DNA of 64,000 bases from positions 21,252 to 85,251 of the forward strand of contig CAYXNX010000003.1 in the NCBI GenBank assembly GCA_964467035.1, written 5' to 3'. Positions 29,396 through 48,630 of the stretch are shown here, piece after piece. How positions within the stretch are numbered: the stretch's first letter is position 1; each line of letters opens with the position of its first letter. The notes under the pieces were generated by a model. That model saw only the letters and a list, made by a program, of their open reading frames with translations. It was not told the DNA's origin and made no database searches. The stretch is from Candidatus Woesearchaeota archaeon (GTDB lineage Archaea; Nanobdellota; Nanobdellia; Pacearchaeales; GW2011-AR1). Made by a program: the position numbers and the translations under genes.

Positions 29396-29562
29396 TCTTC
29401 CGAGGTCTTTAACACGAGAGCCTGCAAGGCGTGGCACGAGCAGAACGAACGAAGTGACCTCGTGAGTTTCCAATCTCCGAAAATTCGTTGTTATCGTAGT
29501 TGTCAGAGAATTATTTTGAATTTGCCGAAAATTTTAAAAATAGAGAACATCTTCTTTTTTGT

Positions 29563-29910
29563 ATGGCAGAAAGTCAATCAAGATATAGTATAGTTGAAAG
29601 ACTTACAACAAGAAAACTAGAGCTAATGGATAGTAAGTCTAAGTTAAAGGAAGATGTGAAATCAAAAGAACAGCACATTGATAAATTAAAAAAAGATTTA
29701 GCAAATTGGAAGAAAGATGTTCAAGAGGACACAAAAAGAGAACAGAGAAGAAAAGAATTAGGAATTGAAAGAGCTTCTCAAGAATTTAATAATACTAAAG
29801 AACAGATGAAAGATAAAGAAAAAGTCTTTGACGACCAAGTTAAAGCTATCGAAGAAGCTCTTCAATCTATTGAAGAAATTAGTAAAACTTCTCCGACTGT
29901 TCAATCATAG
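29563..29910 (+). CDS. hypothetical coiled-coil protein (accessory ORF in island 1)
   Basis: ATG at 29563 (MAESQSRYSIVERL...) sits about 20 nt downstream of an attttaaaaatag TATA-like box. Heptad-rich Lys/Glu sequence. Confidence 0.5.
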   Translation: MAESQSRYSIVERLTTRKLELMDSKSKLKEDVKSKEQHIDKLKKDLANWKKDVQEDTKREQRRKELGIERASQEFNNTKEQMKDKEKVFDDQVKAIEEALQSIEEISKTSPTVQS

Positions 29911-29992
29911 TCCTCTAAAAAATTATGAATGCCATGTGCGTCAAGAGGACACCTTGGTAAAACTAAATCAATGCCATGTGCTGATTCCCTAG

Positions 29993-30017
29993 GCAGGTTC
30001 AAATCCTGCGCGCGGAG
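29993..30017 (+). other. tRNA 3'-end-like fragment (T-arm plus acceptor strand)
   Basis: GCAGG TTCAAAT CCTGC GCGCGGA G read directly. No D or anticodon arm upstream. Preceded by a duplicated 12-mer aatgccatgtgc (29927-29938, 29969-29980). Confidence 0.5.
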
Positions 30018-30036
30018 AGATGATTCTCTTCGCAGG

Positions 30037-30072
30037 GGCTTTTATTCTCTGACAGGCTTTTATTCTCTGACA
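30037..30072. repeat. perfect 18-nt tandem duplication (ggcttttattctctgaca x2)
   Basis: Read directly: 30037-30054 = 30055-30072. Confidence 0.9.
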
Positions 30073-30075
30073 ATT

Positions 30076-40690: not shown

Positions 40691-40919
40691 TGCCCCCTCC
40701 GGGACTCGAACCCGGGTCTGGGCCGTTCTCCGAAGATCCCAAAATTCGCTGAAAAAACGAAAGCTTCTTCATTAACTCTCGGGACCTAACAATTAACTAA
40801 TTGTCGACCTATGAAGTCTTGCCAGAGAGCAGCTGATTTGAGAATCTAGGTTTATCCTTTCATCAAGGATAAACCACTGCTCGAGAGGGCCCAATGCTTG
40901 ACCGCTACACCAAAGGGGC
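40691..40919 (-). tRNA. tRNA-Glu (anticodon CUC) with an intron of about 156 nt at 37/38
   Basis: 5' exon GCCCCUUUGGUGUAGCGGUCAAGCAUUGGGCCCUCUCG (40919-40882). 3' exon CGGCCCAGACCCGGGUUCGAGUCCCGGAGGGGGCA (40725-40691). The acceptor, D, anticodon and T stems all pair. A bulge-helix-bulge can be drawn: a 4-bp helix CUCU/GGAG flanked by 3-nt bulges CGA and AAC. Confidence 0.8.
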
Positions 40920-45379: not shown

Positions 45380-45472
45380 AGCCACTGACGGGACTTGAAC
45401 CCGTGACCTCGTCATTTTTGATATTATCATAGTACCAATGACGCGCTCTATCCTAAACTGAGCTACAGCGGC
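45380..45472 (-). tRNA. tRNA-Thr (anticodon GGU) with an intron of about 17 nt at 37/38
   Basis: GCCGCUGUAGCUCAGUUUAGGAUAGAGCGCGUCAUUGGUA[CUAUGAUAAUAUCAAAA]AUGACGAGGUCACGGGUUCAAGUCCCGUCAGUGGC. All four stems pair. Exact splice points are approximate. Confidence 0.8.
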
Positions 45473-45596: not shown

Positions 45597-45887
45597 CTAA
45601 AATAAATCTGGTTTCCACCTAAAAAGATCTTCTAAGTTTATTCTTTCCAAGCCCTTGCCAGTAGAAGTAATTGAAATTGAATCTTTGCCTAATTTTTTTG
45701 AAATCACCTTAATTAATTCTAAATTTTCATCAGACATCAAAGGTTCTCCTCCAGAAATATCTAAACTCACATTTAGAATATCTATATTCTCAATAACTGC
45801 TAATTTTTCCCCTAAAGAAAGATCTTTTGTGGGGCTATTTGCATCAAGACAGCAAAAATAACACGAGTAAAGGCATTTATTCGTCAC
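45597..45887 (-). pseudogene. radical SAM protein remnant (N-terminal ~96 codons only)
   Basis: NVTNKCLYSCYFC CX3CX2C motif plus GGEPL, but the ORF stops after 96 aa. The remaining ~120 nt before tRNA-Thr cannot hold the rest of a radical SAM domain. Confidence 0.5.
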
Positions 45888-46110
45888 ATTCCAAATTAGG
45901 GTGTTTTTATCATTTTCATTTTTTCAAGAATTAAGCATCTTGAGGTGCTAACACCTCTAAAAAAAGATATATAAACAGATATATAAATTTAATTGAAACG
46001 AAGTTTCAGCTATCTAATTTTCGATAGAAAAATTGCGCGCGCTTCTTTGGGTGGGAATTATCAATTAGAGATTTAAATTTTTAGCCCTCTTTCTCAATTG
46101 CAATTAACAT

Positions 46111-46184
46111 CGGAATTTAGCGAAGTCGTGAGCGTAGCGAACGATTTTGGAAAATGCGAGCCGAGCATTTTTCCGTTAAATTCC
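46111..46184. repeat. Family B structured hairpin repeat, copy B4
   Basis: Outer stem cggaatttagcg / ccgttaaattcc. Inner stem ggaaaatgc / gcatttttcc. Shares ggaatttaRcgaagt and gcgtag motifs with 29321-29346. Confidence 0.75.
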
Positions 46185-46313
46185 TATTATATTCGTTTTT
46201 CCCAGTAAAAACCTGGGCCAAAGTGAAACGGTTTTTGCGAAGGAAGCACCATTAGTTAAAAGAATAAAGGGCAGGGATTCATTAATTTACTACTATTTAA
46301 TTACTATATAACA

Positions 46314-46328
46314 GAAACATTTATAAGG
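46314..46328 (+). promoter_or_regulatory. BRE/TATA-like box (gaaacatttataagg) 22-24 nt upstream of the ATG at 46350
   Basis: Read directly. Same element type as at 11188-11200. Confidence 0.45.
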
Positions 46329-46349
46329 TATTAAATTTCTCTAGATATT

Positions 46350-47342
46350 ATGGCAAATGAAACACACTATGGTGTAATATCTGATGTTCATCAAGACCCA
46401 GGAATAGTTCCAGCAACTATTGAAGTTTTGAAAAAATTGGGTGCAGAAAAACTTTTGATAAACGGGGATATTGGAAATCAGCAGAGAACTCTTGAAGATA
46501 GTAAAAATTATGTTGCTTTTATTCTTGATTCAATTGGAAAAAGTGGACTTGAATCTTATGTTCAGCCAGGAAGCCATGAAACACTACTTGCTTTTGGACC
46601 TGTAATGGATGCTTTTGCAGATAAATATTCAAATTTAATTGATGCAACAAAAACTCCAAAAGCAGAACAAAAAGGTCATAGTCTAATTTTCTTGCCAGGT
46701 TCAGATTTTCTTTGTGGTGGGGAATATCAAATCGGAAATCATGAACAAATTCCAAGTGGAAGATATATTCAAACTCAAAAAGGATTAATGCAATTTGAAG
46801 AATTTGGTCAATATGTTGGTGCTCTTCAACAAGGAATTGCTCAAGGAGCAATGCAATATGCCAACATGAATGATTTACGAAGATTGGTAAATGATTCAGA
46901 CAAAAGTATTGTTGTTTGTCATGTTCCAAGAAAATTTGACAATCCTGAATATGCAGTTGATATGGCTGAATTCGGAGAAGCAACAGAAAAATTTAATCTA
47001 AATGGTAATGATGTTGAGCAAGGTTCTGTATTTCCTCTGTCTGTTGCACAGCAGATTGTTCAAGCAGGTTATCCTGTTGAGATAAGACAAGAAAATAGAG
47101 GAAATAAGGATTTAAAATCATTATATGAAGAATTAGGAATAAATAAAGCAGTTAGTGGGCATTTCCATGAGAGTGGACACAGAGCAAATGACACTTATGG
47201 AAATCACGTTTCTGAAGGAAATTTAGTAACTGATTTATTTTGGAATTCTGGACATTTAGATACTGGACAAACAGGAATTTTGACAGTTGGAGACGGAAAA
47301 GTAGGTTATAGAAATATCCGTCTTGAAGAACATCTGAAATAG
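46350..47342 (+). CDS. calcineurin-like metallophosphoesterase (accessory ORF in island 2)
   Basis: ISDVHQD, INGDIGN, GSHE, CHVP and GHFHES motifs in canonical order. Confidence 0.7.
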   Translation: MANETHYGVISDVHQDPGIVPATIEVLKKLGAEKLLINGDIGNQQRTLEDSKNYVAFILDSIGKSGLESYVQPGSHETLLAFGPVMDAFADKYSNLIDATKTPKAEQKGHSLIFLPGSDFLCGGEYQIGNHEQIPSGRYIQTQKGLMQFEEFGQYVGALQQGIAQGAMQYANMNDLRRLVNDSDKSIVVCHVPRKFDNPEYAVDMAEFGEATEKFNLNGNDVEQGSVFPLSVAQQIVQAGYPVEIRQENRGNKDLKSLYEELGINKAVSGHFHESGHRANDTYGNHVSEGNLVTDLFWNSGHLDTGQTGILTVGDGKVGYRNIRLEEHLK

Positions 47343-47449
47343 AATCCCTGCCCCTTCTATATTTAGCCGATTTTTTTATTGAGTTTAACATCGTGATTAA
47401 GAGAAGTGGCAATCCCTCCAAAAATTTATCCTCTGGAACGAAGTGACTA

Positions 47450-47530
47450 GCTGAGGATTTTTTCAGAGCTGGGGCGAAATTTTGGGAAATCCCAAGCCGA
47501 AGGATTTCATCTTTATCCCCTGTTATCAGC
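47450..47530. repeat. Family B structured hairpin repeat, copy B2
   Basis: gctgagga ... gttatcagc outer boxes and ggaaatcc / ggatttc apical stem. 47457-47491 is identical to 28341-28375. Confidence 0.8.
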
Positions 47531-47681
47531 CCCGAGGGCTTTAGCCCGAGAACGCAGTGGGGCACGAAGTGAGTTCGAGACGCCTCTTTTTTGTATTTTG
47601 AAATAATATTTTTTTGGGTGGGCTATGTATTAGAGAAGGCACTTTCGTTAAGTTAATAAATAAAACAACTTTCCCATAATC

Positions 47682-48527
47682 ATGAAAAATTCAGATTTGC
47701 ATACACATAGTTATTATTCGGATGGAGATTTGCCTCCTTCAGAAGTTGTAAAATTAGCAAAACAAAAAGGAATAAAAAATTTAGCAATTGCAGACCACAA
47801 TTCTTTTGAAGGAGTTGCTGAAGCAGTTAAGGAAGGCAAAAAACAAGGAATTAATGTTATTCCTGCAATAGAAATTCGTGCAAAAGAAGATGAGGTTTTG
47901 GGCTACTTTATTGATTACCAAAATGAAAATTTTAAAAAAGAGGTAGAGAAAATTCAAGAAAACCTCATCGACAGAGTTAAAAAAATAATTTTAAAATTAA
48001 ACAAAAAAGGAATAGATGTTAGTTTTGAAGATTTGCTTAAAACATATCATCCAAACAGAAATTTCATGGAGATTCATCTTATAAAATATTTGAAATCTAT
48101 TGGCTTGGGAGATATTAGAGAATTATGGCCAAAATATATTTCAAAAGAAGGGGAAACTTATGTTCCTGTTGAAGAAATTTCTATTTTAGATGCAATAAAA
48201 TTAATCAAAAAATATGGTGGCGTTCCTGTTTTGGCTCATCCGTGGGTAGAGTTAAGTTCAAAAGAATTGTTAAAAGAAGAAAATTTTAAGGAGTTGGTTA
48301 AAGCGGGATTAAAAGGAATAGAAATAGATAATGGCGATAGGGATGACAGAAGAGATGAGCAAACATTAAAGAAAATTAAAGAATTAGCAGAAAAGTATAA
48401 TCTTATCATCACTTCTGGTAGTGATTTTCATGGGGATTATTTAGTTCAAGCTACAAAATGTCATGGACTTGGAGATTATAATTGTGATGAGAAAGTTGTT
48501 GAAGAATTGAAAAAAGCAAAAGAGTAG
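47682..48527 (+). CDS. PHP-domain phosphoesterase (accessory ORF in island 2)
   Basis: DLHTHSYYSDG, IADHNS, the LAHP-type histidine, and SGSDFHG. Confidence 0.8.
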   Translation: MKNSDLHTHSYYSDGDLPPSEVVKLAKQKGIKNLAIADHNSFEGVAEAVKEGKKQGINVIPAIEIRAKEDEVLGYFIDYQNENFKKEVEKIQENLIDRVKKIILKLNKKGIDVSFEDLLKTYHPNRNFMEIHLIKYLKSIGLGDIRELWPKYISKEGETYVPVEEISILDAIKLIKKYGGVPVLAHPWVELSSKELLKEENFKELVKAGLKGIEIDNGDRDDRRDEQTLKKIKELAEKYNLIITSGSDFHGDYLVQATKCHGLGDYNCDEKVVEELKKAKE

Positions 48528-48563
48528 AAAGTGCCTTCTCCTATTGGGTGAGAGAAAAAATCT

Positions 48564-48585: not shown

Positions 48586-48630
48586 TCTAACTTGTAGGCA
48601 TTCTCAAAAATTGAAACTAACAAGACGGAC

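Follow-up and report, generated by a model that had tools for sequence, protein, structure and literature searches.

The genes studied here, one for a metallophosphoesterase (MPE) and the neighbouring one for a PHP-domain phosphoesterase, lie in a 64,000-nucleotide (nt) stretch of DNA, called the window below, from a Candidatus Woesearchaeota archaeon (GenBank assembly GCA_964467035.1, contig CAYXNX010000003.1, positions 21,252 to 85,251 of the forward strand). We propose, at a probability of roughly 0.6, that both genes sit in a partly decayed integron-like cassette array of this DPANN archaeon, and that the inverted repeat bracketing each gene forms a helix, P_inner, which closes the cargo hairpin of its cassette. 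An earlier note on this DNA had flagged these repeats as gene-specific and had suggested a structural role for them. The flagged features, in window coordinates, are the following.

46267-46280, plus strand: 5' arm of P_inner of the MPE cassette (AAGGGCAGGGATTC), the left arm of the flagged repeat.
46281-46349, plus strand: cassette promoter region of the MPE gene, with the BRE-like/TATA sequence AGAAACATTTATAAGG, conserved in cassettes with unrelated open reading frames (ORFs).
46350-47342, plus strand: MPE cargo ORF, a calcineurin-like metallophosphoesterase of 330 amino acids (aa; Pfam PF00149).
47342-47356, plus strand: 3' arm of P_inner of the MPE cassette (GAATCCCTGCCCCTT), the right arm of the flagged repeat.
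47633-47646, plus strand: 5' arm of P_inner of the PHP cassette (GAGAAGGCACTTTC).
47682-48527, plus strand: PHP cargo ORF, a PHP-domain phosphoesterase of 281 aa (Pfam PF02811).
48527-48540, plus strand: 3' arm of P_inner of the PHP cassette (GAAAGTGCCTTCTC).

The coordinates and the pairing reported earlier for the MPE arms proved exact: 12 contiguous pairs (46269-46280 with 47342-47353) are followed by a 1-nt bulge and two more pairs. In a repeat search, this pairing could be extended to 24 nt at 79% complementarity (46257-46280 with 47342-47365). As had also been claimed, the left arm lies upstream of the TATA box (TTTATAAGG, 46320-46328, 21 nt 5' of the ATG) and the arms bracket promoter and ORF together. 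The PHP gene has the same geometry, with a perfect 14-bp pairing whose right arm begins at the G of the TAG stop codon. An exact-sequence look-up of the MPE protein found no record.

For each of 72 ORFs, the 300 nt preceding the start were matched against the stop region and the best complementarity was scored; 5112 non-cognate gene pairs served as the null (99.9th percentile 23.2 bits, maximum 28.5 bits). The PHP pair scored 30.2 bits and the MPE pair 29.3 bits, above every non-cognate control. A scan for inverted repeats across the window placed the MPE and PHP pairs first and second of 11782. The two repeats are not chance matches.

Two details of the earlier description hold only in part. 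The 3' arm does begin at the G of TAG in the window, but this overlap is incidental; at two other loci with an MPE copy, L075 and L077, the stop codon is TAA and the arm starts just after it. Likewise, the MPE and PHP arms, which had been called unrelated, do differ in sequence and nevertheless pair, but both contain an AAGG(G)CA / TGCC(C)CTT core followed by CTAT, and these shared parts belong to a conserved frame.

MPE homologs are widespread in Woese- and Pacearchaeota. We collected 74 orthologous loci from species-representative GTDB genomes (at most 78% identity), and none of the 68 that were testable has a flanking repeat, except for one AT-rich match (L048). On these grounds, we dropped the view that the repeat is conserved as part of the MPE gene. 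MPE copies of 92-93% DNA identity lie at L075/L076 and L077 among unrelated neighbour genes, and the unit is thereby found in three different neighbourhoods; homology to the window is confined there to 46243-47392 or 46243-47364 (BLAST). L075 is an array of small ORFs, including ParE, PIN/RHH, VapBC and a fragment of an aminoglycoside phosphotransferase, together with a tyrosine recombinase. A copy of 87% identity (L078-L080) has an ordinary chromosomal context, and the part in common is the ORF plus a fragment of the left frame. The PHP homolog at L201/L202 (88% amino-acid identity) is a cassette with arms, and the homologs at L203 and L204 are chromosomal and have none, the latter lying within an ABC-transporter operon. 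These comparisons indicate that the MPE unit is mobile and that the repeat belongs to this mobile unit, not to the gene.

An intact unit consists of an attC-like hairpin (H1), an accessory module (module 2) and then a cargo hairpin made of two cassette-specific helices. The outer helix, P_outer, has 12-16 bp (arms of 12-17 nt); its left strand starts directly at module 2, and its right strand runs directly into TTGA-R''. A stretch of 12-17 nt right after module 2 is complementary, in about 40 of 74 unique cassettes, to a segment 180-2100 nt downstream, which directly precedes TTGA-nTAAC, the start of the next H1. In a test that was blind to complementarity, with the right end set by the TTG...TAAC anchor alone, 16 of 25 cassettes had at least 11 of 12 in-register pairs, compared with 0 of 596 non-cognate pairs. 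The arms in this test were of 15 distinct sequences with a mean identity to each other of 38%, which bears out the view that they are not a shared terminal repeat of a transposon.

The inner helix, P_inner, has 11-18 bp and lies at constant spacing inside P_outer, from which it is separated by the junctions J5 (about 35-44 nt) and J3 (about 6-13 nt). It has a conserved AAGGG/CCCTT base and a variable, cassette-specific distal part, and its pairing in 19 of 32 cassettes lay above the 99th percentile of non-cognate controls. The flagged MPE and PHP repeats are the P_inner helices of their cassettes. The repeat is not gene-specific and does not stand alone; together with P_outer, which encloses it, it belongs to the conserved frame of a cassette in an integron-like array with attC-like sites.

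The cargo loop holds a standard promoter (..AGAAACATTTATAAA..) and an ORF in either orientation, and the stop codon abuts one of the arms. Five cassettes with nearly the same frame, including the P_outer TAAAAAAATCGGC, contain ORFs of 330, 127, 187, 145 and 125 aa; their P_inner tips differ, and each tip is self-complementary. One cassette, at L075 6845-6912, has no ORF at all. It reads TTTTTTCTTTGC - 44 nt - GCAAAGAAAAAA - TTGGA - TTTAAC, that is, a 12-bp P_outer stem with a 44-nt loop, and the recombinase gene is next to it. We searched the literature on flanking helices in archaeal cassettes and found nothing beyond Ghaly et al. (2022); no description of cargo-enclosing helices or of the accessory module came up in the literature consulted, and the motifs of the repeat family (E, see below) were not found in the supplement text of that paper (PMC9668308). 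The two-helix cargo hairpin has apparently not been described until now.

We also observed that the promoter sequence ..GTAACAAAATAGAAACATTTATAAA.. is common to cassettes with unrelated ORFs (window 46281-46349 and the left flanks of L075, L083, L110, L130, L180 and L190), and that short TTACTA/TAGTAA repeat motifs lie 5' of it. These motifs may be a common operator, and there are hints that the cassette genes are co-regulated.

Compensatory changes were looked for in orthologous loci and are present in both cassettes. The MPE P_inner reads GGGCAGGG/CCCTGCCC in the window and GAGCAGGG/CCTTGCTC in L077, which amounts to one double change from G-C to A-T and one G.T pair, and the arms in L075 differ by two single transitions. 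For the PHP cassette, GAGAAGGCACTTTC/GAAAGTGCCTTCTC in the window corresponds to TTTTGGGGCACTCTC/GAGATTGCCCAAAA in L201, with several double changes. Thus, the claim that complementarity is preserved while sequence changes stands, both between orthologous cassettes and over dozens of cassettes. This covariation is evidence that the pairing of the arms is under selection.

It is possible to read the arms instead as a scar of cassette formation: ORFs would have been loaded into the pre-existing hairpin loop of an empty frame, and the helices would have no continuing role. The empty cassette of L075 fits this explanation, as do the identical frames that hold different ORFs and the decayed arrays of the window, which retain P_inner although P_outer and R' are damaged. 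However, the distal arms differ among cassettes of one frame and yet always pair, and a neutral scar would be expected to decay rather than to accumulate the double compensatory changes found in the orthologous MPE and PHP cassettes. We consider a mere scar unlikely, although it is the strongest of the competing explanations.

The GC-richer intergenic stretches are copies of a repeat family, E, with the order TTGA, H1 hairpin, module 2. H1 is made up of a TAAC/GTTA R box, a 2-3 nt bulge, an 11-bp L box and a branched tip. For instance, a fold of -21.4 kcal/mol is predicted for the copy at L075 6704-6790, in which TTAACA pairs with TGTTAA, the L box has 9 bp and the bulge 3 nt. Module 2 is a covarying 9-bp helix (CTGAAATTT/AAATTTCAG and variants) around the invariant TTAGTGCAACGTTCCG. 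A metagenome scan with the 16-mer of module 2 returned 120 loci, of which about 85 are genuine E copies in AT-rich contigs; about 35 were chance matches in GC-rich contigs and were removed by sequence context.

When 22 E elements were aligned, double compensatory changes appeared at 27 of the 40 predicted pairs. The L-box columns 16-25 / 82-91 had three to six such changes each, except for 20/87 (one) and 21/86 (none), and TAAC/GTTA was paired and almost invariant. The published definition of attC (Bouvier et al. 2009; PMC2727003) names an R and an L box, a terminal structure that is variable or branched, and bases left unpaired on the R''-L'' arm. E agrees with it: it has inverse core boxes, a structure that is kept while the L box varies, and a bulge confined to the R''-L'' arm (2-3 nt after TAACA), which may correspond to the extrahelical G and T bases of attC. 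Within the window, the sites at 46102-46191 and 47383-47528 fit the attC core-box pattern, one with a mutated R' and the other with a poorly paired L box.

Two other arrangements were considered and rejected. E cannot be an end-to-end hairpin with the arms as its terminal repeats, because the ends of a single E are not mutually complementary. If the ORF instead lay within the variable tip of a giant classical attC, the core boxes would stand in the wrong order.

Some E copies are hybrids (L139, L140, L173, L121), in which the two sides of the L box, or of the helix in module 2, stem from separate variants and have ceased to pair. These hybrids are evidence that recombination within the conserved E cores is frequent. 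As a separate observation, minimal attC-like sites of about 22-28 nt (for example TATAACATCGGCCCCGTTATA) occur at L108, L183, L092, L190, L128, L129, L107 and L082. They keep the R box and a short L box and have lost the whole branched tip, which suggests that the tip is dispensable.

The recombinase of L075 (7041-7847, 268 aa) is a XerA-like tyrosine recombinase, with 207 bits on the model NF040815 (cutoff 220, so it falls below). It aligns to Pyrococcus XerA (4a8e) in one stretch and to IntI4 (2a3v) and the IntI model in two stretches only, and therefore has no IntI-specific insertion. XerA-like genes are found in nine array-bearing loci, L075 and eight others, two of which are weak matches. 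They often lie just 3' of an R''-type site and are co-oriented with the array.

Based on these features, we propose a model for how the helices came to flank the genes and what they may do. A XerA-/IntI-like tyrosine recombinase would exchange cassettes at the R' core of H1 (G|TTA). In the excised circle, P_inner and P_outer would close a multi-branch junction of about 270 nt in single-stranded DNA (outer' - TTGA - H1 - module 2 - outer). Integration would cut between H1 and module 2 and split this junction, and the strands of the closing stems would therefore end up at opposite ends of the cassette, flanking the gene. The downstream cargo would take module 2 and the 5' arms along with it, and the upstream cargo H1 and the 3' arms. 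We hypothesize that, once a cassette is integrated, its arms would pair in single-stranded DNA and so loop out the cargo, unite the flanking sites and favour the clean excision of a single cassette.

Three results are consistent with this model. First, when the ends of the RHH-PIN cassette of L075 are joined as a circle, the resulting 272 nt are predicted to fold as single-stranded DNA into the closed junction (-55.8 kcal/mol, z = -9.3, matched by 0 of 200 shuffles). Second, cassettes with the arm TTTTTGGATTACT occur in five contexts that diverge exactly upstream of GTTAT, as expected of an integron-type crossover at G|TT; homologous recombination between E segments also makes hybrids. Third, the top strand of E and of the frames has 24 GNA triloops versus 4 TNC triloops, and G.T pairs outnumber A.C pairs on the top strand in the 22-element alignment of E. 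GNA triloops make hyperstable hairpins in DNA and are not typical of RNA. The loops and the excess of G.T pairs are a hint that single-stranded DNA is what folds.

Among the structural roles that the earlier note had listed, excision or circularization fits a mobile MPE unit with covarying arms. The arms are unlikely to close the mRNA of the MPE gene itself, since the left one lies 5' of a leaderless-type promoter. A broader role in RNA, in which the arms and E would act in the processing, insulation or stability of read-through cassette transcripts, is slightly less probable in our judgement than the scar. It would account for E as a strongly covarying, conserved fold with invariant single-stranded motifs and for the excess of G.U-type over A.C pairs on the top strand, and a T-run in and next to the 3' arm of P_outer (47371-47377) could terminate a forward transcript. 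It agrees poorly with a left arm placed upstream of the cassette's own promoter, with cargo in both orientations relative to E, and with hairpin loops that are overwhelmingly of the DNA-type GNA triloop. It also finds no match to an Rfam family.

The inversion substrate that the earlier note had listed gains no support. Under this explanation, the arms would let promoter and ORF flip within the frame. Cargo is indeed found in either orientation relative to E, and a reverse cassette is the mirror image of a forward one, its stop codon lying against the 5' arm (L199, for example). However, about 75 cassette regions included no cargo that occurred both ways round. Arms of this length are too short to invert efficiently by homologous recombination and, beyond AAGGG, contain no conserved sequence that a recombinase could bind. 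We regard inversion as improbable.

Least credible of all are chance matches or the terminal inverted repeats of a transposon or miniature inverted-repeat transposable element. Isolated 11-16 bp inverted repeats of similar score do arise by chance in coding sequence of the AT-rich window, but the cognate scores surpass the whole non-cognate null and the geometry recurs in dozens of cassettes. The arm sequences vary from cassette to cassette, and no terminal repeat is common to them; the arrays, in which target-site duplications were not searched, yielded no transposase.

The integron-like cassette array is thus the explanation that we favour, and several points weigh against it. Homologous recombination between the highly conserved E segments can also explain the breakpoints, and the mapping of the crossover is blurred because such recombination is evident from the hybrids. 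The limits of the MPE homology block lie in J5 and at R'' rather than at R'. The evidence on the strand is mixed, as GNA loops and the G.T excess favour the top strand and classical integrons recombine the bottom strand. The array-linked recombinase, without the IntI-specific insertion, does not have an IntI domain, and no recombinase gene was found in the window. In all cassettes of the window P_outer is broken, and one R' core is mutated; these cassettes may be inactive relics in which P_inner persists. Finally, that the arrays recombine, form circles or act through a single-stranded intermediate is in every case deduced from their sequences.

A bolder form of the model seems to us possible but doubtful. 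Rather than ordinary IntI integrons, the arrays could be a distinct DPANN system, in which a XerA-family recombinase acts on a folded single-stranded junction of about 270 nt, composed of the attC-like hairpin, the accessory module and the two helices. The helices would join the ends of one cassette by pairing and thereby serve as address codes that dictate which neighbouring sites synapse. With cargo held in a standard frame behind a standard promoter, the architecture may then also record how new cassettes are built.

The window is AT-rich (29% GC) and archaeal, and carries FEN-1, an archaeal-type PheRS and an intron-containing tRNA-Tyr. The remaining cassette features in it are listed here.

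46102-46191, plus strand: attC-like hairpin H1 of element E2, upstream of the MPE gene, recognized by homology to the canonical E family, with boxes R'' AATTAAC (46102-46108), L'' GGAATTTAGCG (46112-46122) and L' CGTTAAATTCC (46174-46184).
46192-46224, plus strand: degenerate remnant of module 2, ending in ..CCAAAGT; compared with intact module 2, the conserved TTAGTGCAACGTTCCG core is gone.
46243-46266, plus strand: left junction J5 of the MPE frame (GAAGCACCATTAGTTAAAAGAATA), where homology to L075/L076/L077 starts (BLAST).
47357-47365, plus strand: right junction J3 of the MPE frame (CTATATTTA).
47366-47377, plus strand: 3' arm of P_outer of the MPE cassette (GCCGATTTTTTT).
47379-47528, plus strand: TTGA linker and H1 of element E3, with R'' GTTTAAC (47383-47389) and R' GTTATCA (47522-47528).
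48597-48610, plus strand: 3' arm of P_outer of the PHP cassette (GGCATTCTCAAAAA).
48611-48621, plus strand: R'' remnant at the end of the array (TTGAAACTAAC), with the PheRS gene next.
1752-2444, E elements on the minus strand: third cassette, with 15-bp arms (1752-1766 and 2430-2444) around ORF 1815-2414.
29500-30073, plus strand: fourth cassette-type repeat, in which TTGTCAGAGAAT (29500-29511) pairs with 30062-30073 (12 bp) around ORF 29563-29910.

The R' core of E2 is mutated to TATTATA (46185-46191), and the site is therefore decayed. The L box of E3 pairs poorly and resembles a recombinant hybrid. J5 of the MPE frame is found in five cassettes with different cargo. The 5' partner of the MPE P_outer, AAAAAAATCGGC, is present in L075 (3871-3882) and has been lost from the window. 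Indeed, no partner of the outer arms was found in the window, nor any intact P_outer beside TTGA-TAAC, the only hits being chance matches in coding sequence. With the 5' arm of the MPE P_outer lost, a mutated R' core and an R'' remnant at the end of the array, the arrays of the window are partly decayed. In the third cassette, the ORF has a complementarity score of 25.2 bits, and copies of module 2 lie at about 1340-1400 and 2510-2590. The right arm of the fourth cassette is duplicated in tandem (30044-30075, with GGCTTTTATTCTCTGACA twice).

Further observations were made in and around these arrays. An intact module 2 lies at 1267-1385 on the minus strand, together with a type-2 left frame and the 5' arm TTTTTGGATTACT of a P_outer; identity to the module 2 and the frame of L093, L108, L138 and L183 is 89-95%, and the 3' partner arm is absent from the window. 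This segment looks like an array edge adjoining the AsnC-type regulator gene at 288-1250. A truncated radical-SAM ORF of 96 aa (45597-45887, minus strand) lies between tRNA-Tyr (45380-45472) and the first attC-like site, and a frame-like right end (GCCCTCTTTCTCA + ATTGCAATTAAC) follows it at 46084-46096. The two are probably a decayed cassette. A tRNA gene adjoins the array in the window and likewise at the decayed MPE locus L078. Away from the array, at 40693-40919 on the minus strand, two GC-rich segments resemble the 5' (GCCCCTTTGGTGTAGCGGTCAAGC...) and 3' (...GGGTTCGAGTCCCGGAGGGGGCA) halves of a tRNA, about 170-190 nt apart. They were missed by ARAGORN and Rfam and may be a tRNA with an unusually long intron. 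A search of the whole window with Rfam, at gathering and E-value thresholds, found two tRNAs only and nothing in the intergenic elements.

Ghaly et al. (2022; PMC9668308) described archaeal integrons and attC clusters (CALINs), some of these clusters in genomes of Pacearchaeales and Woesearchaeales. The E arrays resemble integron cassettes in their tandem small ORFs, separated by imperfect hairpins with AAC/GTT core boxes, in cassette breakpoints that may lie at the R' core, in the stop codons that abut the site, in the toxin-antitoxin cargo and in the tyrosine recombinase nearby. The site itself resembles attC in its unpaired bases on the R''-L'' arm, its covarying L box and its variable or branched tip, but, unlike in attC, the branched tip and the flanks of the site are conserved in sequence.

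The arrays also differ from integrons in several respects. In bacterial cassettes, self-pairing extends past the R boxes to 9-11 nt (PMC2727003). The end complementarity of the E cassettes, in contrast, consists of two helices of 12-16 bp each, and a conserved accessory module of 60-75 nt, along with conserved junctions, lies between them and the R box. Each cassette has its own standard promoter and cargo comes in both orientations, whereas integron cassettes are defined as promoterless and co-oriented, with expression driven by a platform promoter Pc beside attI. The recombinase is XerA-like without the IntI insertion, and the composition of the loops points to the top strand. No attI site or Pc promoter was identified for these arrays. 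In sum, the system would work like an integron cassette array, and its sites agree with attC in the features that could be tested; it departs from integrons in having neither an IntI domain nor promoterless, co-oriented cassettes.

Three other systems invite comparison. The Vibrio cholerae repeats (VCRs) of the Vibrio superintegron are self-contained hairpins of about 120-130 bp. Like E, the VCR is a long, sequence-conserved attC with a branched terminal structure that lies between the cassettes of a sedentary chromosomal array; we know of no cassette-specific, ORF-enclosing helices for VCRs. The attP(+) site of CTX-phi, used by XerCD, is similar in that enzymes of the Xer family recombine it and that the site forms only when a single strand folds. 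However, CTX-phi has a single phage attachment site that integrates at dif, with no cassette array and no cargo-enclosing helices. The processing stems of archaeal and bacterial rRNA are long-range helices formed from both sides of a gene, as here, but they form in RNA within the transcript and have bulge-helix-bulge or RNase III sites. In an archaeal bulge-helix-bulge site, the sequences on both sides of the excised segment of a transcript form two 3-nt bulges with a 4-bp helix between them. Such a site was rejected for the arms studied here, which are uninterrupted helices of 12-14 bp (with one 1-nt bulge in MPE) and whose left arm is upstream of the promoter.

What do these arrays mean for integrons in Archaea? 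Such integrons were reported only in 2022, mostly as bare attC clusters, and the E family is a much richer recombination unit than an ORF plus an attC. The helices are a mark of cassette ends that can be read from sequence, and cassettes and their cargo can be delimited with them without an attC model. MPE and PHP are conserved across Woese- and Pacearchaeota; as they exist both as chromosomal genes and as cassette cargo behind a shared promoter, they provide matched pairs for studying how cassettes form. Should synapsis be guided by the helices, this would be a natural case of site-specific recombination addressed by base pairing. If the bolder form of the model holds, the standard frame with its promoter would bear on the unsolved origin of integron cassettes.

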